A stretch of 64,000 bases of DNA from Candidatus Omnitrophica bacterium UBA6233. GTDB taxonomy: Bacteria; Omnitrophota; Gorgyraeia; Gygaellales; Profunditerraquicolaceae. Made by a program: the position numbers and the translations under genes. The notes under the pieces were generated by a model, which was not told the DNA's origin, ran no database searches, and saw only the letters and a list, made by a program, of their open reading frames with translations. The stretch is taken from NCBI GenBank assembly GCA_002440965.1, contig DJWJ01000016.1, positions 7,409 through 71,408 on the forward strand, read 5' to 3'. Of this stretch, positions 9,382 through 57,695 are shown in pieces; position 1 is the stretch's first letter; every line of letters starts with the position of its first letter.

Positions 9382-9591
9382 ATGTGCTTGGGTATACCTA
9401 TGAAGATCAGGAAGATTAACGGAGATTTTGCCGAGGTGGAATCCGGAAGGCTTTTACGCAATGCCAGCATTCAGATGTTACCCGGTTTAAAAGTGGGTGA
9501 TTATGTGCTGGTGCACGCCGGTTTTGCTATCCAAAAGGTTAATCCGGAAAGGGCTAGGGAAACTTTAAAGATTGCCAATGAGATACGTTGA
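9382..9591 (+). CDS. hypC: hydrogenase maturation factor HypC
   Basis: N-terminal 'MCLGIP' with essential Cys2, and 'VGDYVLVHAGFAI'. Confidence 0.8.
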   Translation: MCLGIPMKIRKINGDFAEVESGRLLRNASIQMLPGLKVGDYVLVHAGFAIQKVNPERARETLKIANEIR

Positions 9592-10666
9592 TGAATTCCG
9601 AAATCCTAAGTTAGTCGAAAAAATCGCCGCAAGAATATCCAGCATCAACCCCGGGGATAAAATTGATATTATGGAGGTTTGCGGAACCCATACACAGAAT
9701 TTTTACCGTTTTGGGTTAAGAGAGCTTTTGCCTAAAAATGTCAGGTTAATTTCCGGACCCGGTTGTCCGGTGTGTGTAAGCCCGCAAAAGTATATTGATT
9801 CCGCTATTGAATTGGCCAAAGATAAGGATGTAATTATCGCTACCTTTGGCGATATGTTGCGCATGCCCGGAACCAATTCTTCGCTGGAAGAAGAAAAAAC
9901 CGAGTTTGGAAATGTCCGTATAGTCTATTCTCCTTTGGACACATTGTTTATAGCCAAAAAGAATCCCCACAAGAAAATAGTGTTTTTGGCGGTTGGTTTC
10001 GAGACCACCGCACCCACCATCGCCCTAACAATTTTATCCGCAAAAAAAGAGAAACTAAAGAATATTTTCTTTCTCTCGTCGCTTAGACTAATCCCGCCGG
10101 CTATGCGGTATTTGTTATCCGATAAGAGGCTCAAAATCGACGCATTTTTATGCCCGGGTCATGTTTCGGCAGTTATCGGAACGCAAGATTATGAATTTAT
10201 CCCGAAGAAATATGGAAAAGCCTGTTGTATCGCTGGTTTTGAGCCAGTGGATATTTTGGAAGGAATATGTAGAATTCTAGAGCAAATTATCCTAAATAAG
10301 CCATATGTGGCTAATCAATATACGCGCATAGTTACTAAAACCGGGAATACCCGGGCAAAAAGAGTCACTAACCGTGTGTTTGGAATAAGAGATTCTGAAT
10401 GGCGCGGCCTTGGTTTTATACCGGATAGCGGTCTAGAATTAAAAAGAGAATTTTCTGTTTTTGACGCAAAACGCGTTTTTTCTATTAGCGACAAGAAAAT
10501 CAAGGAAAAAATAACAAGTAGCTGCAGATGCGCTGATATTCTAAAAGGTGTTATTTCTCCGGAAGATTGTCCTTTATTTGTAAGAGCGTGCAATCCGGAT
10601 AATCCTATTGGCCCATGTATGGTTTCCAGCGAAGGAACGTGTAATGCATATTATAGGTATCGTTAG
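9572..10666 (+). CDS. hypD: hydrogenase maturation factor HypD
   Basis: 'CGTHTQNF', 'GPGCPVCV', 'FETTAP' and a C-terminal Cys-rich region; 364 aa. Confidence 0.85.
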   Translation: MPMRYVDEFRNPKLVEKIAARISSINPGDKIDIMEVCGTHTQNFYRFGLRELLPKNVRLISGPGCPVCVSPQKYIDSAIELAKDKDVIIATFGDMLRMPGTNSSLEEEKTEFGNVRIVYSPLDTLFIAKKNPHKKIVFLAVGFETTAPTIALTILSAKKEKLKNIFFLSSLRLIPPAMRYLLSDKRLKIDAFLCPGHVSAVIGTQDYEFIPKKYGKACCIAGFEPVDILEGICRILEQIILNKPYVANQYTRIVTKTGNTRAKRVTNRVFGIRDSEWRGLGFIPDSGLELKREFSVFDAKRVFSISDKKIKEKITSSCRCADILKGVISPEDCPLFVRACNPDNPIGPCMVSSEGTCNAYYRYR

Positions 10667-13124
10667 AAAGTTAAAAGTCAAAAGTCCCTGCCTGCCCGGC
10701 AGGCAGGAAAAGTCAAGACTACAGAGGAAAAATGAAAAATTCAAGTTTTGGGCTGTAGCTTTAGGTTTTTCTCTCTTGTTTTTGCCTTTGCTGATTGGCT
10801 GTGCGCAAAAGATTGAATCGAAGCCGCAAGACTATGCCAAGTTATCCGAGGATTACTACAGTAAGGCCATTAAAGAGTATGAAAGGTCAATCTTCGCCGA
10901 TAAGAATACGGATAAGCCGTATTTTGAATTGGGCAAACTCTACTACGGGCACGGAGATTTTGAGAATGCCGTGAGGGCGTTTCAAAAATCAGCCCTTCCC
11001 GCAGCCGGAAAATTTATTGGTATAGCATATTACCGCCTAGGAGATTACACAAGCGCTCTGGAGATGTTTAACCGCGGGAAATCAACCGATGGGGAGTACG
11101 GATATTATTACGGGTTGACTTGCGAAAAGCTGAATTTATTTGATCAGGCCTTAAATATTTATAAAGGAATTAATGACGGAGAATTCCAGGCTAAAGCAAA
11201 GGCCCGGATTGAGGCAATCGAAAGAAATATTAGTTCAGCGCATATTCGGGACCTAGACCCGGAAATAAGCAGGATTATAGTTTGTTCTCCACAGCAAAAT
11301 AGCTATCCTCAGGCAGCCGCGCTTATTCTCTGGGCCGACGAAGAAATAGAGGTGACCAAAGATAACACCGGGGTATCGCGCCTTCATTATTTGATTAAGA
11401 TTCTTAATGAACGAGGAAAGGAAAATCTTGCGGAAGCCCAAATAGAGTATGATTCCACATTTGAAAAAGTGGAGTTGGAGTACGCGCGCACCATTAAACC
11501 TGACGGCAAGCTGGTTAATGTGGGATCTCGCCACATCCGCGACGTATCGAAATATCTGAACTTCCCGCTTTATAGCAACAATCGGGTCTTTATAATTTCA
11601 TTTCCCGAAGTAGCTATAGGTTCTTGTCTAGAGTATAAACTTAAAATAAAGCGCAGCGAGCTTATCAACAAGAAAGACTTTGTTTTAAATTATCCCCTGC
11701 AGTCTGAAGAGCCGATTATTTCGGCGGATTTTTCGTTTATTCTACCAAAAGAGAAAAAACTTAAAATTAAGGTCATCAACGAGGAGTATAATGATTTCAA
11801 AGCGGTTCTTATTCCTTTTGTTGAAGAACGGGGGGATAGCCTGATTTATCGCTGGAAATTCAAAGATATCCCGCAGATAATCCCGGAGCCCAATATGCCG
11901 CCCGATGTCGAAATCAATCCCATGATTTTATTATCTACTTTCCAGAGTTGGGATGAGGTCTACGATTGGTGGTGGAATTTAGCTAAAAACAAAATCCAGG
12001 CAGATCCAGCCATTAAGCAAAAGGTGAAGGCGTTAATCAGAAAAAAGCATTCTGACGGAGAAAAGGCGCGTTCAATTTATAATTTTTGCGCTCAAAACAT
12101 TCGTTATGTCGCGGTAGAATACGGGCAGGCCGGTTATGAGCCGCATTCGGCAAGCGAAATATTTAAGAATAAATACGGCGATTGCAAGGATCAGGCAATA
12201 CTTTTAGTTACCATGTTTAAAGAAGCTGGCCTTGACGCTTATCCGGTGCTTATCAGCACTGATAAGTCCATTGATCTTAATCCCGACCTGCCGGCAACAT
12301 TGTTTAATCATTGTATAGTGGCTTTGGAAATAAATGGGAAGACTATATTTCTTGATCCTACCGCTCAAACCTGTTCCTTCGCAGACCTGCCTCAGCAAGA
12401 TCAGTTACGCAAGGTTTTGGTATTTAGCCCGGACGGATACAAAATATTGGATACACCGTTATTCCCTCCGGAGCATAACTTAGCCCGTCAGGATCTAAGC
12501 ATAACAGTGAACGAAAACGAAGGGGTAACCGCCGATAAAAAGAATCTTACCCGCGGTTTGTATGATCAAATTCAGCGTTACTGGCTCCTCTATACTCAGC
12601 CTGAGCTCATCCAGGATGTTTTAAATAATGCGGCACAGGAAGTTTCAATCGGGGCTAAAGTGGATAAATATAAAATTGATAATTTAAGCGATTTAAATAA
12701 GCCGGTTGTGTTGTCGTACAGTTTTTCCGGGAATGAGTTTTTCATTGTTTCGGGAGCCTTGAGGATTTTGCCGCAATTGGCCTCGGTTAACACATCTTTA
12801 GTTTCCAAGCTTAAGCGGAAATATCCGATTGACCTTGCCCTCTTGGATACTAAGGAAGAATTCTTCGAGATAAATCTTCCCGGCGGTTTTATCATTAAGA
12901 ATATGCCGGAGAATCTAAACGAGGATAGTCCATGGTTAAGGGTTGAAGTAGAATATGGCTATAAAGATAACAAGGTTTTCTCCCGGCAGCAAACCGAAAC
13001 CAAGAAAAGGATAATTTCACAGAACGAATATCCATCTTTCAAAGTTTTTTTAGAGAAAATAGCGAGAGAACTCAAGCAAAGGATAATTTTAGAAAAGGTA
13101 GATGGCGAATATGAGAAAAAATGA
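10644..13124 (+). CDS. TPR-repeat / DUF3857 / transglutaminase-like lipoprotein
   Basis: Lipobox 'LLIGCAQK'; TPR-like 'YFELGKLYYGHGDFENAVRAFQKS'; transglutaminase core 'KYGDCKDQAILLVTMFKEAGLDAYPVL'. Start assigned to the ATG at 10644. The N-terminal basic region is encoded by the repeat element. Confidence 0.55.
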   Translation: MHIIGIVRKLKVKSPCLPGRQEKSRLQRKNEKFKFWAVALGFSLLFLPLLIGCAQKIESKPQDYAKLSEDYYSKAIKEYERSIFADKNTDKPYFELGKLYYGHGDFENAVRAFQKSALPAAGKFIGIAYYRLGDYTSALEMFNRGKSTDGEYGYYYGLTCEKLNLFDQALNIYKGINDGEFQAKAKARIEAIERNISSAHIRDLDPEISRIIVCSPQQNSYPQAAALILWADEEIEVTKDNTGVSRLHYLIKILNERGKENLAEAQIEYDSTFEKVELEYARTIKPDGKLVNVGSRHIRDVSKYLNFPLYSNNRVFIISFPEVAIGSCLEYKLKIKRSELINKKDFVLNYPLQSEEPIISADFSFILPKEKKLKIKVINEEYNDFKAVLIPFVEERGDSLIYRWKFKDIPQIIPEPNMPPDVEINPMILLSTFQSWDEVYDWWWNLAKNKIQADPAIKQKVKALIRKKHSDGEKARSIYNFCAQNIRYVAVEYGQAGYEPHSASEIFKNKYGDCKDQAILLVTMFKEAGLDAYPVLISTDKSIDLNPDLPATLFNHCIVALEINGKTIFLDPTAQTCSFADLPQQDQLRKVLVFSPDGYKILDTPLFPPEHNLARQDLSITVNENEGVTADKKNLTRGLYDQIQRYWLLYTQPELIQDVLNNAAQEVSIGAKVDKYKIDNLSDLNKPVVLSYSFSGNEFFIVSGALRILPQLASVNTSLVSKLKRKYPIDLALLDTKEEFFEINLPGGFIIKNMPENLNEDSPWLRVEVEYGYKDNKVFSRQQTETKKRIISQNEYPSFKVFLEKIARELKQRIILEKVDGEYEKK
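10667..10719. repeat. short palindromic repeat element, copy 1: AAAAGTCAAAAGTC flanks around CCTGCCTGCC-CGGCAGGCAGG
   Basis: A near-identical element occurs at 28079-28138. Both copies lie in-frame inside ORFs. Confidence 0.7.
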
Positions 13125-15075
13125 GTATTTAGGAAAAGAGAAACGGCAATACGTGCGTTTAGACACGGTTTTTCCCGTGCAATTCCGCCTTGTAAGCGTC
13201 GACGGCAAAATTAACTTATCCGACTGGTTACAGGGGTTTACCAGCGATTTAAGCAAAGGCGGGATATGTTTATGCGTAAACAACTTCGAACCGGGCCTTC
13301 TGCAATTAATCAAAGAGCATAAGGTAAAACTCTCCTTGGCCATAGATATACCATTCTTAAGAAAGCCGGTAGATGTTTTAGCTGTTCCGGTTTGGACGAG
13401 AGAGAAGGCAGGTGCCGTCAACAAATGTTACATCGGGCTTTCTTATGAAAAAATAAATTCTGCCGCCAATAGTAGGTTAATGATTTATGCTCGGGGGAAG
13501 AAGTTATTCGTTCCGGCGGTTTTAGGGGCCATCATTCTTTTGGGGGCGCTTTTAGCATTAAACGGCCTTATAAACATGGAGCTTAAAAAGAATAACAGGG
13601 CCTTAGTTAAGGCTTTGACCGCGGTAATTCAGGAATCCCAAGCCGTCCGGCAGAAAATAAGCGATGTAAACAAGGAAAAAGCGCTTTTGGAATCAAATAT
13701 CCAGGCGCTAGAATCGCGTATAAAAGCAGCAGATTACGAAAGGCTAAAGCTGAAAAGTAAGACGCAAACCGAATTGTCCGAGCTCACGGAGCAGTCCGGG
13801 AGAAAAATAGATGACCTAAGCAATCTTATTAAACAGTTAACAATGGAAAAAGAGGAGCTTAGGGGTAAGTTGGCTGCTACTCGAATCAAAGAGAGCGTTA
13901 TCGTTAAGGAGGCGGCCCGAATAGAAGAGAAGAAGGCGGTTATAGAGAAGGCAAATTTTGATGCGATGTATCAATGGATTAAGGTGCATCAAAATCCCCG
14001 CACCGGCCTGGTGGTGAGCTTCGAGGGGGACAACGATATAAGCGGATGGGCTTTTACTTATGACCAGTCCTTGGTTATACAAGCTTTTACTAATTTTAAA
14101 GATTTTGAACGCGCAAGAAAAATGCTGGATTTTTTCAATAACCGGGCTGAAAAGAAGGACGGCTTATTCTTAAACGCCTATTATGCTAACGACGGTTTGC
14201 CCTCCGAAGTTATAGTCCATTGCGGGCCGAATATTTGGCTGGGGATTGCGGCAGTTCAATATACTTATAAGACCAATGATAAAAAATATCTTAGTATGGC
14301 CGAGAGTATTGCCGATGGTATAATTGATTTACAAAAACAAGATGCCGAAGGAGGATTGCGCGGAGGGCCCAGCGTGACGTGGTATGCCACAGAGCATAAT
14401 CTTGACGCATACGCATTCTTCAATATGTTATACGTACTTACGAGTAAACAGAAATATTTGGAGGCCAGAGATAAGGTATTGGATTGGCTGGTTAAGAATA
14501 CCTATAATAAGACAGATATTCCTATTAAGCGCGGCAAAGGAGATTCTACTATTGCCACCGATACTTACGCTTGGTCAATTGCCGCCATCGGCCCGGATAA
14601 ATTGGAAAGTTTAGGGATGGATCCAGATAGAATTATGGATTTCGCGGAGAAGACCTGCAGCGTAAACGTTTTTTATACAAAACCGGAAGGAGATAAGGTT
14701 AAAATCAAAGGTTTTGATTTTGCTCCCGAAAGACATGTTTCCCGCGGAGGAGTAGTTTCTTCGGAGTGGACTGCCCAGATGGTCATTTCTTTTAAGATTA
14801 TGGCGGATTATTATCTTAAGAAAAATATTCCCGGCAAGGAAAACAGTTATCGGTTGAAAGCGGATGAATATCTTCTTTCTTTAAGCAATATGATTATTTC
14901 CAGTCCATCTGCTTCGGGCCAGGGGGCAAACTGTCTGCCTTACGCCAGCCAAGATTTTGTAGATACGGGGCATGGTTGGTTTACGCCAAAAGGCAAAGAT
15001 ACCGGGTCAGTATCCGGGACTACCTATACAATCTTTGCTTATTATAATTACAATCCCTTGGAATTCAAAGATTAA
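13102..15075 (+). CDS. PilZ-domain protein with TM segment, coiled coil and a C-terminal (alpha/alpha)6-barrel-like domain
   Basis: N-terminal PilZ motifs 'RQYVRLDTVFPVQF' and 'DLSKGGICL'; hydrophobic segment 'VPAVLGAIILLGALLAL'; long heptad-like region; C-terminal glycosidase-like fold is inferred only. Confidence 0.5.
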   Translation: MANMRKNEYLGKEKRQYVRLDTVFPVQFRLVSVDGKINLSDWLQGFTSDLSKGGICLCVNNFEPGLLQLIKEHKVKLSLAIDIPFLRKPVDVLAVPVWTREKAGAVNKCYIGLSYEKINSAANSRLMIYARGKKLFVPAVLGAIILLGALLALNGLINMELKKNNRALVKALTAVIQESQAVRQKISDVNKEKALLESNIQALESRIKAADYERLKLKSKTQTELSELTEQSGRKIDDLSNLIKQLTMEKEELRGKLAATRIKESVIVKEAARIEEKKAVIEKANFDAMYQWIKVHQNPRTGLVVSFEGDNDISGWAFTYDQSLVIQAFTNFKDFERARKMLDFFNNRAEKKDGLFLNAYYANDGLPSEVIVHCGPNIWLGIAAVQYTYKTNDKKYLSMAESIADGIIDLQKQDAEGGLRGGPSVTWYATEHNLDAYAFFNMLYVLTSKQKYLEARDKVLDWLVKNTYNKTDIPIKRGKGDSTIATDTYAWSIAAIGPDKLESLGMDPDRIMDFAEKTCSVNVFYTKPEGDKVKIKGFDFAPERHVSRGGVVSSEWTAQMVISFKIMADYYLKKNIPGKENSYRLKADEYLLSLSNMIISSPSASGQGANCLPYASQDFVDTGHGWFTPKGKDTGSVSGTTYTIFAYYNYNPLEFKD

Positions 15076-27460: not shown

Positions 27461-28828
27461 ATGTCTTACCTTAAAGCACTTCAGTATCTGGAATCCCGCA
27501 TTAATTATGAAAAGCTTTCCAAATATCCCTATAAAAAAGCGCTGAGTTTAAAACGCGTCCAGTTTTTTCTGGATACAATCCATAATCCGGAAAGCTTCTT
27601 AAAATCCATCCATATAGCCGGAACCAAGGGTAAGGGTTCAACCTCAGCGTTTATTGCCTATATATTAAGAGAAGCGGGTTACCGGGTAGGGCTTTATACT
27701 TCTCCGCACTTAGTAGATTTTAGAGAGCGGATTAGAATTCTTGCGCCTGGTTCCGCAGAAAAAGAAGATTTTTCCGGGATGATCCCTAGGCGTAAATTCG
27801 CGGAATTAGTTTTCAGGTTAAGGCCTACAATCGAAAAGTATAATCGGGTTTCAAAATACGGTCCGCTTACATATTTCGAAATCTGCACCATAATCGCCCT
27901 GGTTTATTTTAAAGAAGAACACGTTGATTTTGCTGTTCTGGAAACCGGATTAGGGGGAAGGCTGGATGCTACGAATGCAGTTAATCCGTTGGCCAGCATA
28001 ATAACCCCCATAAGTTATGAACATATGGATAAGCTGGGGTATACTTTAACTAAAATAGCGTCGGAAAAAGCCGGAATTATAAAAAGTCAAAAATCCCCGC
28101 CTGTCCGGCAGACAGGAAAAGTCAAAAGTCAAAAATCAACGGTAATCAGTGCCCCACAAACGCAAGAAGCACTGACTGTTATTAGAAGTAAGTGTAAAAA
28201 AGAAAAAGCGAAATTACTGGTCGTGGGAAGAAATATAAAATATGCTGGCACTGAAAATAATTTTAAAGTTATTACTCCCTGCAGGGAATATAAGAATCTG
28301 AAAATAAAGTTAATTGGCGCGCATCAAATAATGAATGCCGCTGTGTCTTTGGGGGCAATTGAATCCTTGCGTTCATCCGGAGTTAAGGTCAGTATTGATT
28401 CTATAAGGGGCGGGCTTTATAATACTCTTTGGCCTGGCAGATGTGAGATTGCGGGCAAAAGGCCGTTTATTATCCTCGATGGCGCGCAAAATTCCGCCTC
28501 TGCCGGAGTTTTAAGCCAGGCAGTCAGGAATAGATTCCGTTATCAGCGCCTTATTCTTGTGCTAGGTATATCCAGTGATAAGGATATGCAAGGCATAGCC
28601 AAGCAACTTTATGCTTTGGCAGATGCGGTTATCTTGACTCAAGCCCGTACTCCGCGCGCAGCTGATGCGCCTGTTCTTAAAAATTATTTTAAGGGTAAAG
28701 AAACTTATGTTACCGAAAGCGTAAGAGAAGCTAAAAAATTGGCTTTAAAGATTTCCCGGAAAGAAGATTTAATTTTGATCACCGGTTCATTATTCGTAGT
28801 GGGCGAGTTTAGAAATGATAAATCATAA
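27461..28828 (+). CDS. folC: folylpolyglutamate synthase / dihydrofolate synthase
   Basis: 'IHIAGTKGKGSTSAF' P-loop, Mur-ligase middle and C-domains. Start at the ATG just after the purH stop. Carries an in-frame copy of the palindromic repeat element. Confidence 0.8.
   Translation: MSYLKALQYLESRINYEKLSKYPYKKALSLKRVQFFLDTIHNPESFLKSIHIAGTKGKGSTSAFIAYILREAGYRVGLYTSPHLVDFRERIRILAPGSAEKEDFSGMIPRRKFAELVFRLRPTIEKYNRVSKYGPLTYFEICTIIALVYFKEEHVDFAVLETGLGGRLDATNAVNPLASIITPISYEHMDKLGYTLTKIASEKAGIIKSQKSPPVRQTGKVKSQKSTVISAPQTQEALTVIRSKCKKEKAKLLVVGRNIKYAGTENNFKVITPCREYKNLKIKLIGAHQIMNAAVSLGAIESLRSSGVKVSIDSIRGGLYNTLWPGRCEIAGKRPFIILDGAQNSASAGVLSQAVRNRFRYQRLILVLGISSDKDMQGIAKQLYALADAVILTQARTPRAADAPVLKNYFKGKETYVTESVREAKKLALKISRKEDLILITGSLFVVGEFRNDKS
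28079..28138. repeat. short palindromic repeat element, copy 2: AAAAGTCAAAAATC..CCGCCTGTCCGGCAGACAGG..AAAAGTCAAAAGTCAAAAATC
   Basis: Related to 10667-10719. In-frame inside folC, encoding 'KSQKSPPVRQTGKVKSQKS'. Confidence 0.7.
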
Positions 28829-44879: not shown

Positions 44880-46142
44880 ATGAAAAAAAGAAGAGTAGTG
44901 ATTACGGGGATTGGCGTAATTTCGCCTAATGGCATAGGTAAAGATAAAGTTTATCAGGCGATGACCAACGGCGTTTCCGGAATAAAACGGGTAGATGGTT
45001 TTGATGTTTCGGTATTTAATACCAAGATCGCCGCGGAAGTCCGTGACTTTGATCCGTTTAAGCTCGGGCTTACTCATGACGAAGCTGTACGTATGGATAG
45101 ATACGTACAATTTGGAGTGGTTGCCGGAAATATGGCGATTAAGGATAGCACCCTGGATCTTTCGAAAGTTAATCCTGAGAGGATCGGAGTTTGTCTTGCC
45201 AATGCCATTTGCGGGACAAAATATATGGAAGAAGAATTCGCTCTTGTAACTGACGATGGCAAGAAAGCAATTGATCCGTCAAAGGTCCGTCCTGACCTTT
45301 ATGATGCCGCGATGTTTAATACACCTTCCATTGAATTATCTTCGAAATATCATTTAAAAGGAATATGCAATACGCTCTCAACCGGCTGCACAGCCGGGAC
45401 TGATTCTTTAGGGTTTGGTTTAGAGACGATCCAGGATGGAGAGCAGGATATTATGATTTGCGGAGCGGCAGAGGCTCCGATCACGCCGATTACTTTTGGC
45501 GCTTTTGATGTGGTAAATGTTTTATCAGCCCGTAATGATGATCCTGAAGCTTCGTCACGGCCGTTTGATAACAAACGCGATGGATTTGTCTTAAGTGAAG
45601 GCGCCGGGATTTTAATTTTAGAAGAATTGAATCACGCTTTAAAACGTAACGCCCATATTTATTGCGAGGTTTTGGGTTTTGGCACCAGCTGTAACGCTTT
45701 TCATATGACTGACCTTCCGGGAGACGGAGGAGCAATGACTAATTGTATAACCCTGGCGTTAAAAGATGCCGGGATCAAACCGCAAGAGATAGATTATATC
45801 AGCGCCCACGGATCAAGCACGAAAATGAATGATATCTTCGAAACCAATGCTTACAAAACGGTTTTCGGAGATTACGCGTATAAACTTCCCATAAGTTCGC
45901 TTAAGTCAATGATCGGCCATCCCCTGGCTGCTTCTAACGCCGTGGAGATGACTGTTTGTTCGATGATTTTTGAAAAAAATATCCTTCCTCCGACTATCAA
46001 TCAGGAAGAGAAGGATCCCTTGTGCGACTTGAATTATATTCCCAATAAAGCAATCACCAAAAAAGTAAATACTATTATTAAGACTAGCTCTGGATTTTCC
46101 GGAATTCATTCTTCGTTGGTTGTGAGGAGATATAATGGATAA
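44880..46142 (+). CDS. beta-ketoacyl-ACP synthase (KAS I/II-like; KS-alpha)
   Basis: Active-site Cys 'LSTGCTAGTDSLG'; His 'SAHGSSTKMND'; His 'IGHPLAASNA'; 420 aa. Confidence 0.85.
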   Translation: MKKRRVVITGIGVISPNGIGKDKVYQAMTNGVSGIKRVDGFDVSVFNTKIAAEVRDFDPFKLGLTHDEAVRMDRYVQFGVVAGNMAIKDSTLDLSKVNPERIGVCLANAICGTKYMEEEFALVTDDGKKAIDPSKVRPDLYDAAMFNTPSIELSSKYHLKGICNTLSTGCTAGTDSLGFGLETIQDGEQDIMICGAAEAPITPITFGAFDVVNVLSARNDDPEASSRPFDNKRDGFVLSEGAGILILEELNHALKRNAHIYCEVLGFGTSCNAFHMTDLPGDGGAMTNCITLALKDAGIKPQEIDYISAHGSSTKMNDIFETNAYKTVFGDYAYKLPISSLKSMIGHPLAASNAVEMTVCSMIFEKNILPPTINQEEKDPLCDLNYIPNKAITKKVNTIIKTSSGFSGIHSSLVVRRYNG

Positions 46143-47361: not shown

Positions 47362-47368
47362 ATAGTTT

Positions 47369-47500
47369 AATGACAAATGACAAAATCCAAAGCACAAAAT
47401 AAATCTAAAGTTCAAATGTCAAATACTAAAACTAATGTTTTGTTATTTAATTTTTGGAATTTGAATTTATTTTGGATCTTGTGCTTTGTCATTTGACATT
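47369..47500. repeat. intergenic long palindromic repeat, family 'AATGACAAATGACAAAATYCAAAGCACAAAATAAAT', copy A
   Basis: The 5' arm 'AATGACAAATGACAAAATCCAAAGCACAA' is mirrored by 'TTGTGCTTTGTCATTTGACATT'. Lies between the KS-beta stop and the rSAM RBS. Confidence 0.7.
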
Positions 47501-47515
47501 AAAAGAGGAGGAGTT

Positions 47516-48990: not shown

Positions 48991-49227
48991 ATGGAGATGA
49001 AAGCGAAAGTTAAAGAAGTTTTGGTTAATTTGCTCAAAGTCAAACCTGAAGAATTAAAGGATGGTGTTTCTTTGGAAGAGAGTATAGGCGTGGATTCAAC
49101 TGAAATGGTTGAGTCAGTCATTGCTCTGGAAAAGGCTTTTGGAGTGAAGTTAAGCCCTAAAGAAATTAGCAAGTCTTCCAGCATTGACGATATCGCGAAA
49201 ATTATAAGTAGCAAGATAAGCGTTTAA
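48991..49227 (+). CDS. acyl carrier protein
   Basis: 78 aa; phosphopantetheine-attachment context 'GVDSTEMVESVIALEKAFGV'. Confidence 0.7.
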   Translation: MEMKAKVKEVLVNLLKVKPEELKDGVSLEESIGVDSTEMVESVIALEKAFGVKLSPKEISKSSSIDDIAKIISSKISV

Positions 49228-49328
49228 TGACAAATGTCAAAATTCAAATGTCAAAATTCAAATGTAAAAACCAAGGTATTTAGTTTTGTAATTTGCGCTT
49301 TGACATTTGAATTTTGACATTTGACATT
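49226..49328. repeat. intergenic long palindromic repeat, same family, copy B
   Basis: 'AATGACAAATGTCAAAATTCAAATGTCAAAATTCAAATG' is mirrored by 'CTTTGACATTTGAATTTTGACATTTGACATT'. Lies between ACP and the cyclase gene. Confidence 0.7.
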
Positions 49329-49340
49329 AGCTATTTATTC

Positions 49341-50705: not shown

Positions 50706-51482
50706 ATGAATCAGGACTTAAAAGGTAAGGTAGCGATTGTAACCGGAGCAAGCCGAGGGATTGGCAAGGCTCTTGCCTGCACTGCGGCAAGCTTAGGAGT
50801 AAATTTAACTATTGCTGCCCGCGGAGAAGGCCAATTAAAAGAAGCAGCTGAAGAAATCGCCAAAAAATATAAGGTAGATGTTTTAGCTGTTCCTTGCGAT
50901 GTCACTAAATTAGAGGACCTCGAGAATTTGGTGAATAAAACCAAGGAGAAATTCGGTAAGATCGATATTTTGATCAATAACGCCGGAGTTTCTTCGCAGT
51001 ATCCATTTCAAGATCAGCCGATTGAGGATTTTGAGCGCCTGGCCCATACAAATTATTTGGGTTATGTGCGCCTGATCCGTTTGGTTATCAACGATATGAT
51101 CAAAAATAAAAGCGGCGCGATCATCAATATGGTTTCCGGCTCTACTCTTTGCGATCCGCTACCCAGGAATTTTATCGTTTATAGCTCATTAAAAGTCGGT
51201 TTGCGCGCGTTCTCTAAAGGGTTATTTTGGGAATTGCGCGACCACGGTATCAAAGTTACTTCGATATTGCCCGGGGTTACGGACACGGATCTGACCGGAA
51301 AATTAAGCGAGATTACCGCTGATACTAAAAGATTGATGAGCACTGAGGCAATCGAAGACGCGGTCAGGTTTGCTTTGACTGTGCCGCAGAATGTTTGTCC
51401 CCTAGAGATCGCGGTAATCAATCAGCAAACCCCGTGGACAGCTCCGGTAATACCATTTGCACAGAAGCATCCGGGAAAATAG
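50706..51482 (+). CDS. short-chain dehydrogenase/reductase (FabG/ketoreductase-like)
   Basis: 'GKVAIVTGASRGIGKALA', 'NNAG' and 'YSSLKVGLRAF' (YxxxK). Confidence 0.8.
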   Translation: MNQDLKGKVAIVTGASRGIGKALACTAASLGVNLTIAARGEGQLKEAAEEIAKKYKVDVLAVPCDVTKLEDLENLVNKTKEKFGKIDILINNAGVSSQYPFQDQPIEDFERLAHTNYLGYVRLIRLVINDMIKNKSGAIINMVSGSTLCDPLPRNFIVYSSLKVGLRAFSKGLFWELRDHGIKVTSILPGVTDTDLTGKLSEITADTKRLMSTEAIEDAVRFALTVPQNVCPLEIAVINQQTPWTAPVIPFAQKHPGK

Positions 51483-52548: not shown

Positions 52549-52690
52549 TAATGACAAATGACAAAATTCAAAGCACAAAATAAATTCAAAATCAAAATTA
52601 CCAATGACAAAACCTTGGTTTTGACATTGGGTATTTGTCATTTAAATTTATTTTGAATTTTGAGCTTTGGTATTTGTCATTTTGAATAAT
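52549..52690. repeat. intergenic long palindromic repeat, same family, copy C
   Basis: 'AATGACAAATGACAAAATTCAAAGCACAAAATAAATTC' is mirrored by 'GAGCTTTGGTATTTGTCATTTTGAAT'. Shares its first ~36 nt with copy A at 47369. Confidence 0.7.
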
Positions 52691-54943: not shown

Positions 54944-55693
54944 ATGCAAATGGTAAAAGATGTGCATCTGACGGGAAAAGATCTGACACAAATGGTTCAA
55001 TTACGCCAGCAGGATGTGGGCAAATACGCGATTGTTCCGGGCCCCAAGGATAGGCTGGAAGTTTTAATGAAGAAAATCGAGAATCCGGTCAAGAATTTTA
55101 CTTTTATGGAATATTCCATGTTCACCGGGACTTATCAAGGGATCAAGATTACCATGATGAACGGCGGAAGATTTTCTACGGATACCTCGATTACCTCGGA
55201 AGTAATGTGCAATGCCAGAATTGATAATATTATCCGCGCGGGCTCTGCCGGTTCTTTGGATGAAAATATAAAAGTAGGAGATTTATTCGTGGTTGATGAA
55301 GTTATCCGCGGAGACGGGGTTACGCCTTATTATGTGGATAAGGACTTTAAAACAGTTGCCGATAAAAAAATTGCCGATACGCTTTATGAGGCGGGTAAGG
55401 CTATGGGTATAAATATCCATCGTGGAAAGGCCTGGAGCACGGATGCGCTTTTACGCGAAACCAGAGAAATCGTCGAAGCTAAGCGTAAAGAGGGGGCAAG
55501 AGCCGTAGATATGGTCTCTTCAACGCTTTTGACCATTGCCCAGACTTATGGCGTTAAAGCAGGTTCGATCCTGGCCGTAAGCGATAATGTGATTACCGGC
55601 GAAATGGGTTTTATGAATCCATTGTATTATATGGCTGAGGCGAATATTTTAAAAATTGCCCTTGAGGCAGTGGTAAAATTAGAGGGAAAATGA
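54944..55693 (+). CDS. PNP/UDP-family nucleoside phosphorylase (MTA/5'-deoxyadenosine/purine nucleoside phosphorylase-like)
   Basis: 'IDNIIRAGSAGSL' and 'VDMVSSTL' are typical of the PNP_UDP_1 fold. Confidence 0.65.
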   Translation: MQMVKDVHLTGKDLTQMVQLRQQDVGKYAIVPGPKDRLEVLMKKIENPVKNFTFMEYSMFTGTYQGIKITMMNGGRFSTDTSITSEVMCNARIDNIIRAGSAGSLDENIKVGDLFVVDEVIRGDGVTPYYVDKDFKTVADKKIADTLYEAGKAMGINIHRGKAWSTDALLRETREIVEAKRKEGARAVDMVSSTLLTIAQTYGVKAGSILAVSDNVITGEMGFMNPLYYMAEANILKIALEAVVKLEGK

Positions 55694-56658
55694 AATTTTC
55701 TCCGCTTTTCTGGCCGATCCAGTTTAAAAACGGGATAATTTATATCCTTGATGAAACTCTCCTGCCGCATAAGCTTACCTATATAAAGGCAAAGAACTAC
55801 CAGGAGGCCTGTCGCGCGATAAAAGAAATGAAAACCCGGGCTGTGGGCCAGGTCATTCTGGTAATGTATATTTTTCTGCAATTACTCGAGCAAGGGAAAA
55901 AGAAAGACCTGGTTAAAGTTGCTCAAGCTATCAACTCTACCCGTCCGACTTTATCATTTAAGTTTTTAACCGATATGGTTTTGGGTTGGGCTAAATCCGG
56001 CGCTCCTTTAGATAAATGCATTACGGGATTTTTAGAAGGTTTAAAATACAGCCGGATCAAACAAGCTGAAGAAGCCAGCAAATTAATTAAAAGCGGTGAT
56101 TGCATATTAACTCATTGCAATATCAGTGGTCTCCTGCCTTTAATCGGAGAAATTTGTCAAAAGCAGGGTAAAAAGATAAGTTTTTTCGCGACTGAAACCC
56201 GTCCATATATGCAAGGCTCGCGTTTAACTGCCTGGGAGTTAAAACAAGCCGGATTTGACGTAACCATAATCACCGATAATATGGTTGCCGCGGTTATGTC
56301 TTTGGGTAAGGTAAATAAAGTTATTGTCGGCGCGGATCATTTGGCGCAAAACGGAGATATCGCCAATAAAATCGGAACTTATGGAATCGCGGTCTTAGCT
56401 AGACATTTCAATCTGCCTTTTTATGTTTTATGCCCGCCGGCTTCCGGATTAAAGAGCGGCAAAGATATCAAAATCGAGATCAGACCGGATATCGAGATGC
56501 TTGAGTATCAGGGTTTGCGCTTGGCGCCTATTGGCGCGAAAGGTTATTATCCGGCATTCGATGTTACTCCCAATAAATTAATTACCAAACACATCCATTT
56601 AAATGTAGGGACGGTTCTCAATTCAAGGCAGAAGTGTCCCCGGAGGGGACAGTTTTAG
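55690..56658 (+). CDS. eIF-2B alpha/beta/delta family isomerase (MtnA-like 5-(methylthio/deoxy)ribose-1-phosphate isomerase)
   Basis: 'GADHLAQNGDIANKIGTYGIAVLARHFNLPFYVLCP'. Confidence 0.75.
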   Translation: MKFSPLFWPIQFKNGIIYILDETLLPHKLTYIKAKNYQEACRAIKEMKTRAVGQVILVMYIFLQLLEQGKKKDLVKVAQAINSTRPTLSFKFLTDMVLGWAKSGAPLDKCITGFLEGLKYSRIKQAEEASKLIKSGDCILTHCNISGLLPLIGEICQKQGKKISFFATETRPYMQGSRLTAWELKQAGFDVTIITDNMVAAVMSLGKVNKVIVGADHLAQNGDIANKIGTYGIAVLARHFNLPFYVLCPPASGLKSGKDIKIEIRPDIEMLEYQGLRLAPIGAKGYYPAFDVTPNKLITKHIHLNVGTVLNSRQKCPRRGQF

Positions 56659-56693
56659 GTTGGTTTGAGAACCGTCCCTAATAGAGGAGAGAG

Positions 56694-57695
56694 ATGATTT
56701 TTAGCAGAGAGAGGGCGTTAAAAAAAGAAATAATTCAAGTTGGCAAACATCTTTATCGGAATAGGCTGGCTGTGGCTAAATCCGGGAATTTAAGTGCGCG
56801 CCTGGATGCTGAAAACATACTGATTACTGCAACCGGAACATCGCTAGGGGATTTAAAATATAAGGATATTGTAAAAGTAAATTTAAGCTCTGAGAAAGTT
56901 TGCGGTGAGGCCAAGCCCAGTTCAGAGTTACCTTTACACGCTCTTGTTTATAAGAATTTCGATTCTAAAGTTGTGATTCATGCCCACCCTCCTTTAATCA
57001 ACGGTTATTTTGCGGTTACCTCAGATTTAAAGGCCTTAACCTTCGAGACTAAATTTTATCTGGGGAATATTCCGGTTATTGAGCAAGATACTCCTACTGT
57101 AACTAAACCCGGAGCAGTCATAAGCGCGTTGAAATCCAATAGTTTAGTTATACTGAAGAATCACGGGATAGTGGCGATAGCTGATAAATTCGGCGACGCG
57201 CTTAATTTAACTGAAGCCCTGGAAGAGGCAGTGCGTAGCGCTGCTTTGGCCAGAATATTCCAGAAAGATATTCTTGATGATTTGGACAAGGTTTTAAAAG
57301 AAGATTTGGCCAAGGATGTCGCATATACAATGTTTTCTCCAGAGCATATCCAGGCGATTGTAGATTTAGTGAATAAAGACGAATTCATTGCTCAAAAAGG
57401 GAAAGAACAGGATTTAACGGTAAAGCTGGCTATAAAATTGGACGGAAGCGATAAAGCCTACAAATTTAATTTCGAAAAAGGAAAAATCGTAAAATTGGAT
57501 TTTGATAGCGAGGCGCCATTTGTAATTTCTGCCCCGGCCAATGTCTGGGAGCAGGTGTTTTTGGGTAAGCTCGATTCGTTTGTGGCGGTTACCCAGGGGA
57601 AAATGAAATTGCAGGGACAATTGGGCCAGCTTTCCAAGTGGTATGTGCCCTTTACTCGGCTTTTTGGGATATTTAAGGAAGTAAAGATAAAATGA
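56694..57695 (+). CDS. class II aldolase/adducin-family protein (MtnB/Ald2/FucA-like) with C-terminal extension
   Basis: 'SGNLSARLD', 'VVIHAHPPLINGYFAV' and 'LKNHGIVAI' metal-binding motifs; extra ~120-aa C-terminal region. Confidence 0.7.
   Translation: MIFSRERALKKEIIQVGKHLYRNRLAVAKSGNLSARLDAENILITATGTSLGDLKYKDIVKVNLSSEKVCGEAKPSSELPLHALVYKNFDSKVVIHAHPPLINGYFAVTSDLKALTFETKFYLGNIPVIEQDTPTVTKPGAVISALKSNSLVILKNHGIVAIADKFGDALNLTEALEEAVRSAALARIFQKDILDDLDKVLKEDLAKDVAYTMFSPEHIQAIVDLVNKDEFIAQKGKEQDLTVKLAIKLDGSDKAYKFNFEKGKIVKLDFDSEAPFVISAPANVWEQVFLGKLDSFVAVTQGKMKLQGQLGQLSKWYVPFTRLFGIFKEVKIK

Follow-up and report, generated by a model that had tools for sequence, protein, structure and literature searches.

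A small palindromic repeat within heptamer arrays, translated in frame in folC and a lipoprotein gene of an Omnitrophota bacterium

How does one short palindrome come to lie within two unrelated protein-coding genes of a single genome, and to be read there in two different frames without a stop codon? The question is raised by a 64,000-nucleotide stretch of DNA (hereafter, the window) from Candidatus Omnitrophica bacterium UBA6233 (contig DJWJ01000016.1, positions 7,409 to 71,408). A preliminary description of the window had pointed to two copies of a small palindromic element flanked by AAAAGTC repeats, one by hypD and a TPR lipoprotein gene and the other inside folC, and had suggested a coding-tolerant miniature inverted-repeat transposable element (MITE), a DNA uptake or recombination site, or an RNA structural element. 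We consider it reasonably probable that this is an ultra-small, non-autonomous palindromic insertion element, which would be copied in trans, would lie in or generate 7-nt direct repeats, and would persist only as stop-free, frame-preserving sense copies in permissive loops. The two copies and their host genes are the following.

9572 to 10666, + strand: hypD, from the list of open reading frames (ORFs) and HypD Pfam matches on syntenic orthologs; stop codon TAG at 10664-10666.
10644 to 13124, + strand: DUF3857/transglutaminase-like TPR lipoprotein gene, from Pfam; start codon ATG at 10644.
10666 to 10686, + strand: left heptamer run of copy 1, GAAAGTT AAAAGTC AAAAGTC, from the sequence and from Tandem Repeats Finder (TRF; period 7 at 10667-10686).
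10687 to 10707, + strand: palindromic core of copy 1, CCTGCCTGCCCGGCAGGCAGG, that is, CCTGCCTGCC-C-GGCAGGCAGG, 21 nt, forming a 9-bp hairpin.
10708 to 10721, + strand: right heptamers of copy 1, AAAAGTC (10708-10714) and then degenerate AAGACTA, from the sequence.
27461 to 28828, + strand: folC (folylpolyglutamate/dihydrofolate synthase), host of copy 2, from the ORF list and FolC homologs.
28082 to 28095, + strand: left heptamers of copy 2, AAAAGTC AAAAATC, a perfect 14-nt direct repeat with 28124-28137.
28096 to 28116, + strand: palindromic core of copy 2, CCCGCCTGTCCGGCAGACAGG, 21 nt, translated as PPVRQTG and forming a 6-bp hairpin.
28117 to 28137, + strand: right heptamers of copy 2, AAAAGTC AAAAGTC AAAAATC, from the sequence and from TRF (28117-28139, period 7).

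The two copies are present as first described. A repeat finder run on the window aligned 10673-10716 with 28082-28125 at 91% identity over 44 nt. The core pattern matched in six strand and register combinations within the window, every one of them at copy 1 or copy 2; dinucleotide shuffles predicted 0.15 matches, and none of 100 shuffles reached six. The right half with its flank (CCGGCAGGCAGGAAAAG) recovered both copies at 0-1 mismatch plus one site with three mismatches, i.e., three matches against 0.17 expected. Besides the two copies the window has three isolated half-sites, near the chance rate, and three 21-kb relatives have no core. Around copy 1 the heptamers extend into more decayed units as far as ~10744, and on the other side the last base of the hypD stop codon is the first base of the first degenerate heptamer. 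Each core is 21 nt long, a canonical 20-mer plus one base, and both copies are translated in different frames without stops, copy 1 as ..KVKSPCLPGRQEKS.. and copy 2 as ..KSQKSPPVRQTGKVKSQKS.., again as had been claimed. The stems differ by one compensatory pair, CCTGCC/GGCAGG becoming CCTGTC/GACAGG (C-G to T-A), which gives substance to the pyrimidine/purine ambiguity noted in the early consensus. Folded as RNA, copy 1 has a minimum free energy (MFE) of -17.9 kcal/mol (z -4.4) and copy 2 of -8.7 kcal/mol (z -2.5).

The folC copy can be compared with relatives that lack the core, through an alignment of 17 FolC sequences. At the insertion site, the window FolC reads EKAGIIKSQKSPPVRQTGKVKSQKSTVISAPQ, as does its 99% identical counterpart P0001 of a separate JGI assembly; the next relative, P0002 (87-89% identical), reads EKAGIIKSQESTVISAPQ. 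At the DNA level, a syntenic contig (L002, 88-92% nucleotide identity) reads ATA-AAAAGCCAGGAATC-AACGG, and the window is longer there by 42 nt, which are bounded by a perfect 14-nt direct repeat, AAAAGTCAAAAATC. This net difference from the nearest ortholog is made up of the 21-nt core, equal to seven extra FolC codons, and 21 nt of heptamers. In other Omnitrophota the same FolC site carries five-unit heptamer arrays without the palindrome, and the unit varies by lineage (AAAAGYC in L082, AAAATGC in L083, and GCGCTAT in L084). The window FolC minus its seven core codons (KSQKSKVKSQKSTVIS) equals the L082 array (KSQKSKGKSQKLIVIS) in length and is nearly identical to it in sequence; it is also length-matched to the five-unit array of L083, with a nearly alike peptide. 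Because the core-less window peptide matches the L082 array, we read the FolC feature as a composite, an older 35-nt array whose units 2 and 3 are separated by a 21-nt palindrome. The in-frame insertion that had been proposed for FolC therefore stands insofar as 42 nt are absent from the nearest ortholog, and gives way to a composite insofar as the core sits within an older heptamer array. Judging from these sequences, the array at the L002 site would have contracted or would never have expanded. We considered whether the AAAAGTC flanks arose by simple target-site duplication at this site and rejected that origin, as relatives already hold five-unit arrays there and the empty site differs from both flanking copies at 3 of 14 positions.

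What does FolC tolerate at this position? In an AlphaFold model (mean predicted local distance difference test [pLDDT] score 76.6), residues 210-227 are in coil between a helix (197-207) and a strand (228-231), with pLDDT below 50 at residues 213-224; in this predicted structure, the insertion site is a permissive surface loop. Other Omnitrophota have a second insertion hot spot in FolC (alignment columns 100-124), occupied by heptamer arrays or by longer GC-rich inserts (P0009 and P0015); the arrays there include ACCAATC x4.7 (L083, 10287-10319) and GCATCCG x4.1 (L085, 10288-10316).

Copy 1 had been placed between hypD and the lipoprotein gene. It does lie at that junction, and it is not simply intergenic: the lipoprotein gene starts at 10644 and overlaps hypD by 23 nt, with a Shine-Dalgarno sequence, AAGGA, at 10632-10636, seven nt upstream of the ATG. 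No in-frame lipoprotein start lies downstream of the element, and the ATG at 10732, in another frame, runs into a stop after 8 codons. An identical 826-aa protein from ATG 10644 is found in public annotation (P0121), on five contigs from NCBI, JGI, ENA, and Logan, and many orthologs begin with M[RH]I[IT]N at the equivalent hypD-overlapping ATG. We rejected an intergenic copy 1 on these grounds, the out-of-frame ATG at 10732 and the conserved start at 10644. The signal peptide ends in the lipobox LLIGC, and copy 1, upstream of it, encodes part of the basic n-region (..RKLKVKSPCLPGRQEKSRLQRKNEKFK..), in agreement with the preliminary description. In one ortholog (L121/P0123) the n-region is short, MRIINSVKFWLGVF, and is the empty state; other orthologs have heptamer-derived peptides in its place. 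Relative to L121, the window has a 78-nt extra segment, as counted by eye from the two sequences. At least four orthologs have the palindrome at the same position among other heptamers, the junction units being AAAGTT and AAAAGCC in L122, GTTATCG in L123, GATTTYG in L124, and AAAAGTC in L042. The GTTATCG repeats of L123 also encode the hydrophobic core of the signal peptide, VIGYGLLVIG. The L042 contig has, in addition, a 33-nt ACTCAGG array within hypD (1511-1543).

Since chimeric reads or linkers can create short palindromes, an assembly or library artefact has to be considered. However, the same insertions are found in independent NCBI, JGI, ENA, and Logan assemblies, including the FolC insertion in the JGI assembly (P0001) and the lipoprotein N terminus on its five contigs from four sources. 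The copies also diverge by substitution and indel, keep their frames, and occupy orthologous sites in different species. We know of no sequencing adapter or linker with the sequence of the element, and we take the chance of an artefact to be close to negligible.

Is the element found in other genes? We scanned metagenomes with a pattern anchored on the flanks only (AAAARTCCC-N13-21-GGAAAAGTCAA), leaving the core unconstrained, and obtained 78 loci, mostly chance matches. Ten of the 78 (nine distinct, as L054 duplicates L079) carry the same palindrome. Seven of the nine distinct members fall within long ORFs, with which they share both strand and frame. Five of the hosts have Pfam matches, to NTP_transferase/ManC (L073), PGK (L031), TGT (L041), Aminotran_5/NifS-like (L023), and Radical_SAM (L079), and two, a 927-aa ORF (L013) and a 127-aa ORF (L066), have none. 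Three reading frames are used among the members, giving KSLPAGRQEKSKV, KVPA.PAGRKSQ, and SPPVRQTGKVKS. Some variant cores recur from one host gene to another: L066 and L079 share CCATGCCTACC, L041 and L023 share GCCTCGCC, and CCCGCC is common to window copy 2 and L023. Such sharing is what one would expect if the element were copied from master copies that were themselves diverging. A scan of a genome collection with a core-plus-flank pattern (CCTGYCCGGCAGRCAGGAAAAGTC) was too specific and gave only a chance match in a high-GC Burkholderiales gene; a peptide search with a 60-aa concatenation of the three frames of the element yielded 4053 word-sharing candidates, none with an E value of 10 or less. 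Some members have further repeats. In L013, the ORF with the element also has, ~300 nt away from it, a second, palindrome-free AAAAGTC array (2517-2544), and second core variants without heptamers occur in L023 (909-931, CCTGCCTTGCCGGCAGGCGGG) and L031 (229-250, the 18-nt CCTGCCTGCGCAGGCAGG).

The canonical core is a perfect 20-nt palindrome, CCTGCCTGCCGGCAGGCAGG, composed of two abutting 10-nt inverted halves. In a collection of viral contigs, the exact 20-mer occurs at 35 loci, on contigs of 0.38-0.68 GC, the number per contig reaching six in one of 29.5 kb, compared with 0 matches for a composition-matched control palindrome (CCGTCCGTCCGGACGGACGG). Many of these copies lie between direct heptamers of unrelated sequence, e.g., GTGAGAG, TCTCGTC/TCTCGCT, GTGAAAG, TTGCGGA, and TTCGTAT. 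With the core left out, the autocorrelation of the flanks peaks at lag 7 (0.371, against 0.272 at random sites), and 7 is the best lag in 16 of 42 copies. In 9 of 39 distinct copies, the 7 nt that precede the core and the 7 nt that follow it agree at five or more of seven positions (control fraction 0.02, P=5e-8). Flanking repeats of 7 or 14 nt are thus seen in about a quarter of copies, a signature that pre-existing arrays would also give. One 20-mer is cleanly inserted in the variable loop of a tRNA-Met gene (L110, 2239-2330), which is still recognised by ARAGORN and by Rfam (50 bits), and this copy has no flanking duplication. L117 (515-534; 1182-1416) has a tRNA-like gene with both a group I intron and, in its D-loop, the palindrome. 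One of the contigs is a real phage, in which the tail-tube gene lies between two intergenic cores. A related contig (L087, 8616-8635) has the same tRNA insertion and is missing part of the T-arm. On the 29.5-kb contig (L106/L113/L114), some of the six 20-mers are inside a larger repeat unit, ..CCGTAG-core-GGGCGGCACAA.., and an Acido-Lenti-1 RNA at L106 10903-10948 suggests a host outside the Omnitrophota. We found no relevant occurrence of the 20-mer or its sub-strings in the searched literature, nor any link there between Omnitrophota and heptamer or palindromic repeats.

Altogether, the in-frame members in other genes, the shared variant cores, and the 35 dispersed 20-mer loci favor the MITE-like nature among the three originally suggested. 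Would a hairpin at work in the transcript or the DNA, maintained by the cell to stabilise or process mRNA, to pause ribosomes, or to act like a terminator, for example, explain the same facts? The strong fold of copy 1 and the compensatory C-G to T-A change that keeps pairing in copy 2 would suit it, as would the recurrence of the core at the hypD stop and lipoprotein start in five divergent orthologs, the intergenic cores around the phage tail-tube gene, and a T-rich tract that follows the hairpin on the minus strand. Across copies, however, the hairpin MFE varies between -17.9 and -6.7 kcal/mol, and decay has affected about half of the stems (L066, L042, L079, L023, and window copy 2 are at -6.7 to -8.9 kcal/mol), which argues against strong selection on structure. 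These values come from folding each copy separately, as +1 indels at differing positions break the columns needed for covariation; the pair in window copy 2 is the one compensatory change, and several other copies have uncompensated changes in the left arm. The host genes, moreover, are unrelated, the positions coincide with permissive loops and not with regulatory sites, the nearest FolC ortholog lacks the core, and the sense strand has no T-tract. Rfam had no family at either window copy or at the cores in eleven other loci, its only matches elsewhere in the examined loci being tRNA, group I intron, and Acido-Lenti-1. We judge a functional hairpin unlikely, and the conserved RNA structural element of the preliminary description is weakly supported at best.

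A perfect dyad would also suit a dimeric DNA-binding protein, so that the core might be a recognition site, whether for DNA uptake, for recombination, or of a parS-like or KOPS-like kind. All seven distinct intragenic cases are co-oriented with their genes, and the right arm and its flank are well conserved, as such a site would have them. Uptake sequences have 9-12-nt motifs at a density of about one per kb. With two copies in 64 kb and none in the three 21-kb relatives, the element is far below that density and that of KOPS, and the uptake site once suggested does not hold up. The uniform sense orientation of the intragenic members has another explanation, as (GACTTTT)n has a TGA in every frame. 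The core is also dispensable in the closest relative, and the same core is present in phage-like contigs of very different GC content. A role as a recognition site appears to us very unlikely.

How, then, can one palindrome be tolerated in several reading frames? A 20-nt core would shift the frame, so that surviving coding copies carry an extra base. This is what we see in all 13 aligned copies in reading frames, where the +1, read by eye from the printed copies, is at six different positions. It is a C in the loop in window copies 1 and 2, a C in the left arm in L041 and L023, an A in the left arm in L066 and L079, an A after CCGG in L122 and L123, an A in the right arm in L124, and an 8-nt unit (AAAAAGTC) adjoining a 20-nt core in L073, L031, and L013. 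The L042 core is also 21 nt, with a left arm too degraded for the extra base to be placed. In the viral collection, by comparison, a 21-mer with any central extra base occurs at 1 locus versus 35 loci for the 20-mer. We infer that the coding copies are survivors of imprecise or secondarily compensated insertions. Within genes, the number of heptamers changes by three at a time (21 nt), which would explain the perfect arrays of 33 nt (12+21), the units that differ by lineage at homologous sites, and the two-unit state of L002. Tolerance of multiple frames, which the preliminary description had found unusual, is best explained if only stop-free, frame-preserving copies survive selection.

The same arithmetic bears on recoding, in which ribosomes would hop over the hairpin between matching codons of the flanking repeats, as in T4 gene 60 and the mitochondrial byps. 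A stable hairpin between identical direct repeats within a coding sequence is the arrangement expected for it. However, every coding copy is stop-free and keeps frame, including those with independent +1 changes, which bypassing would make needless, and no stop codon is found at the take-off site. We hold recoding to be highly improbable.

The heptamers that surround the core are themselves part of a broader pattern. In 175 kb of these genomes we counted 12 perfect tandem arrays of at least three units, nine of period 7 and three of period 4; periods 5, 6, and 8-12 gave no such array in the same 175 kb. By comparison, 443 kb of unrelated loci had one period-7 array. The units are site-specific, several arrays are 4.7 units long, and in-frame arrays are found in pyrK of the window, folC of L083 and L085, purH of L084, and hypD of L042. 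The AAAAGTC flanks are one instance of this wider occurrence of heptanucleotide arrays. Bacteria are known to have an excess of period-7 repeats with a preference for about four units, which is unexplained (PMC4692102; PMC4679880), the heptamer excess having been ascribed to polymerase slippage (PMC4692102). The two pyrK arrays in the window are as follows.

783 to 815, + strand: pyrK array 1, ACCCAAA x4.7, 33 nt, perfect and in frame, peptide YPKPKTQNPKPI.
1048 to 1080, + strand: pyrK array 2, ACTATCG x4.7, 33 nt, perfect and in frame, peptide LSTIDYRLSTI.

The second pyrK array equals the orthologous segment in length, including that of Lactococcus PyrK. We therefore rejected a net 21-nt insertion as its origin, and its length neutrality suggests that arrays can re-homogenise without net gain. 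PyrK relatives (P0242, P0245, P0250, and P0253) have long GC-rich insertions at three loops, and in two of them, P0242 (LTTPACRQGTTQD) and P0245 (YSIPACRQARRNTQY), the same palindrome is read as PACRQ in a loop of the PyrK Fe-S domain. Other PyrK inserts (..LRSGQAG.. and ..SPLGARLSA..) look like different palindromic repeat families.

Such arrays raise the question of whether any mobility is needed. Arrays and palindromes could both be scars of error-prone break repair or replication slippage, through loop-out and snap-back synthesis at fragile, permissive sites, with the shared palindrome reflecting a sequence preference of the process. The dominance of period 7 among perfect arrays (nine versus three of period 4) with site-specific units, the different arrays at the same FolC and PyrK sites across lineages, the length-neutral PyrK array, and polymerase slippage as a cited source of the heptamer excess (PMC4692102) would all be in keeping with this. 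Local templating, however, cannot account for one and the same 20 nt turning up in a tRNA loop, between phage genes, and in genomes whose GC content spans 38-68%, when a matched palindrome has no match, and the variant cores common to different genes point to copying. We give repair scars alone little credence.

Does the element belong to a known family? The closest likeness is to the small dispersed repeats (SDRs) of cyanobacteria. Elhai and colleagues are said to have described, in 2008, eight of these (SDR1-8), hairpin-forming dispersed elements of 21-27 nt that reportedly often lie within tandem heptamers and encode no mobility function. Similarly, the core studied here is a 20-21-nt hairpin with 6-9-bp stems, in phase within heptamer arrays, and tandem heptamers surround it in both window copies and in every flank-anchored member. 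The differences are that the hosts are Omnitrophota and unrelated phage-like contigs, that most recovered copies are in ORFs and in frame, and that one 20-mer spans 38-68% GC; the sequence seemingly differs as well, and the likeness is one of architecture. Common ancestry with the cyanobacterial SDRs is unlikely. PMC5861425 reports SDRs as confined to the Nostocaceae, and PMC3116915 also mentions those of cyanobacteria. In its habit of coding insertion, the element resembles the Rickettsia palindromic elements (RPEs), in-frame, translated inserts in unrelated metabolic genes at fold-compatible positions (PMC10969869). Our copies are likewise in frame in genes for FolC, the lipoprotein, ManC, PGK, TGT, and NifS-like and radical-SAM proteins. 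RPEs, in contrast, are ~100-150 bp long, use one frame, encode a conserved peptide, are restricted to their genus, and have no association with heptamer arrays, whereas the present core, of 20-21 nt, is translated in three frames.

Repetitive extragenic palindromes (REPs), the REPINs, and their IS200/IS605-like RAYT transposases offer a third comparison. Like them, the core is a short, GC-rich, dispersed, non-autonomous palindrome, and the duplication-free tRNA copy would fit transposition of a single-strand hairpin. REPs, however, are extragenic by definition, whereas both window copies and seven of the nine distinct members are within ORFs. In REPs, moreover, a 5' tetranucleotide is conserved and a RAYT gene lies between the repeats, whereas here no flank is conserved across taxa and no Y1 transposase lies beside the clustered cores, as far as the ORFs between cores go. 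Measured against a classical MITE, the element has terminal inverted repeats only in the trivial sense of its two abutting 10-nt halves. Heptanucleotide repeats elsewhere (the cyanobacterial short tandemly repeated repetitive sequences, GGGNATC in Xanthomonas and Nostoc, and TAACTGA in Beggiatoaceae) share the period-7 excess and the preference for about four units. Those repeats, however, have one genome-wide unit, are mainly intergenic, and are scarcer than expected within coding DNA; here the units are site-specific, are read in frame within housekeeping genes, and enclose a palindromic core. Finally, GC-rich mobile inserts in yeast mitochondria are reportedly bypassed by ribosomes, as Lang and colleagues are said to have found in 2014. 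Those GC clusters, or byps, are also small GC-rich palindromic inserts in coding genes of an AT-rich genome. Byps, in contrast, interrupt the frame and are bypassed; the copies described here preserve the frame and are stop-free, so that ordinary translation suffices. In all, we would not count the element among the SDR, RPE, or REP families; it has an SDR-like architecture and an RPE-like in-frame habit.

The mechanism we propose for this insertion element would begin with some activity that copies the core to new sites in trans, making it non-autonomous in the manner of a MITE, a REP, or a cyanobacterial SDR. The core would land in, or create, 7-nt direct repeats, typically coming to lie in phase within a short tandem array whose unit would be AAAAGTC in this lineage and a different one elsewhere. 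In compact, AT-rich Omnitrophota genomes, copies would persist only at structurally permissive spots, such as the FolC surface loop and the lipoprotein n-region. Persistence would need the absence of stop codons, which would force the AAAAGTC strand to be the sense strand, and a preserved reading frame, through the +1 base on the core and heptamers gained or lost by threes. The folC copy would have no function for the host, its product being a translated, hydrophilic filler rich in K, S, and Q; the lipoprotein copy may supply basic residues to the signal-peptide n-region.

Several observations weigh against this account. There is only one clean pair of filled and empty DNA sites, and its polarity is ambiguous, as the L002 lineage could equally have lost the 42 nt by slippage between the 14-nt repeats. 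The core may have made the 7-nt duplication on insertion or may have landed in existing arrays; both fit, and the tRNA copy has no duplication at all. Neither a mobilising enzyme nor an autonomous parent element came to light, and ORFs between clustered cores (L086, L092, L106, and L113-L115) contain no transposase domain. The right arm, GGCAGGCAGG, is seemingly better conserved than the left, and several orthologs have the core at their hypD/lipoprotein junction too, both of which hint at constraint beyond the neutrality we would otherwise suppose. The members flanked by AAAAGTC were found with a pattern that requires the flank, so the constancy of the flank is partly a matter of ascertainment. 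Likewise, taxonomic breadth is only indicated, by contig GC and one Acido-Lenti-1 RNA match and not by phylogeny. It is tempting to go further and to regard the 20-nt palindrome as cross-phylum, ultra-small mobile DNA, the smallest known to invade protein genes, tRNA genes, and phage, whose insertion and excision with a 7-bp target duplication would seed and enlarge heptanucleotide tandem arrays and would be the origin of the period-7 excess. We consider this wider proposal unlikely.

The window has other repeats, apart from the element and its heptamers. A perfect 21-nt direct repeat, GGTAGATGTTTTAGCTGTTCC, occurs at 13368-13388 and 50873-50893, 37 kb apart, with a third, 81% identical copy at 44990. 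Three AT-rich imperfect palindromes of ~105-135 nt (47366-47503, 49225-49329, and 52549-52682), with arms 75-84% complementary, form a separate intergenic repeat family. Each of the three begins at the TAA stop of the upstream gene (TAATGACAAATGAC...), the first two finish just before the next gene start, and the arms are made of heptamer-like AAATGAC, AAATGTC, and AAAATTC units. An inverted repeat at 56606-56680, with 36-nt arms that are 81% complementary and a 3-nt spacer, lies between the co-oriented ORFs 55690-56658 and 56694-57695.

If the element is what we propose, the size limit of genome-spreading elements would come down to 20 nt. The architecture of a hairpin within heptamers, described only in heterocystous cyanobacteria, would extend to Omnitrophota and to phage-like contigs. 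This would also be the second clear case, after Rickettsia, of palindromic repeats absorbed into the frames of essential enzymes, and one in which the arithmetic of the reading frame is visible. For those who annotate metagenome-assembled proteins, LPAGRQ, PACRQAG, and KSQKSKV would mark repeat insertions and not conserved motifs. Lastly, the association of the core with 7-nt direct repeats would provide a testable handle on the excess of period-7 repeats in bacteria.

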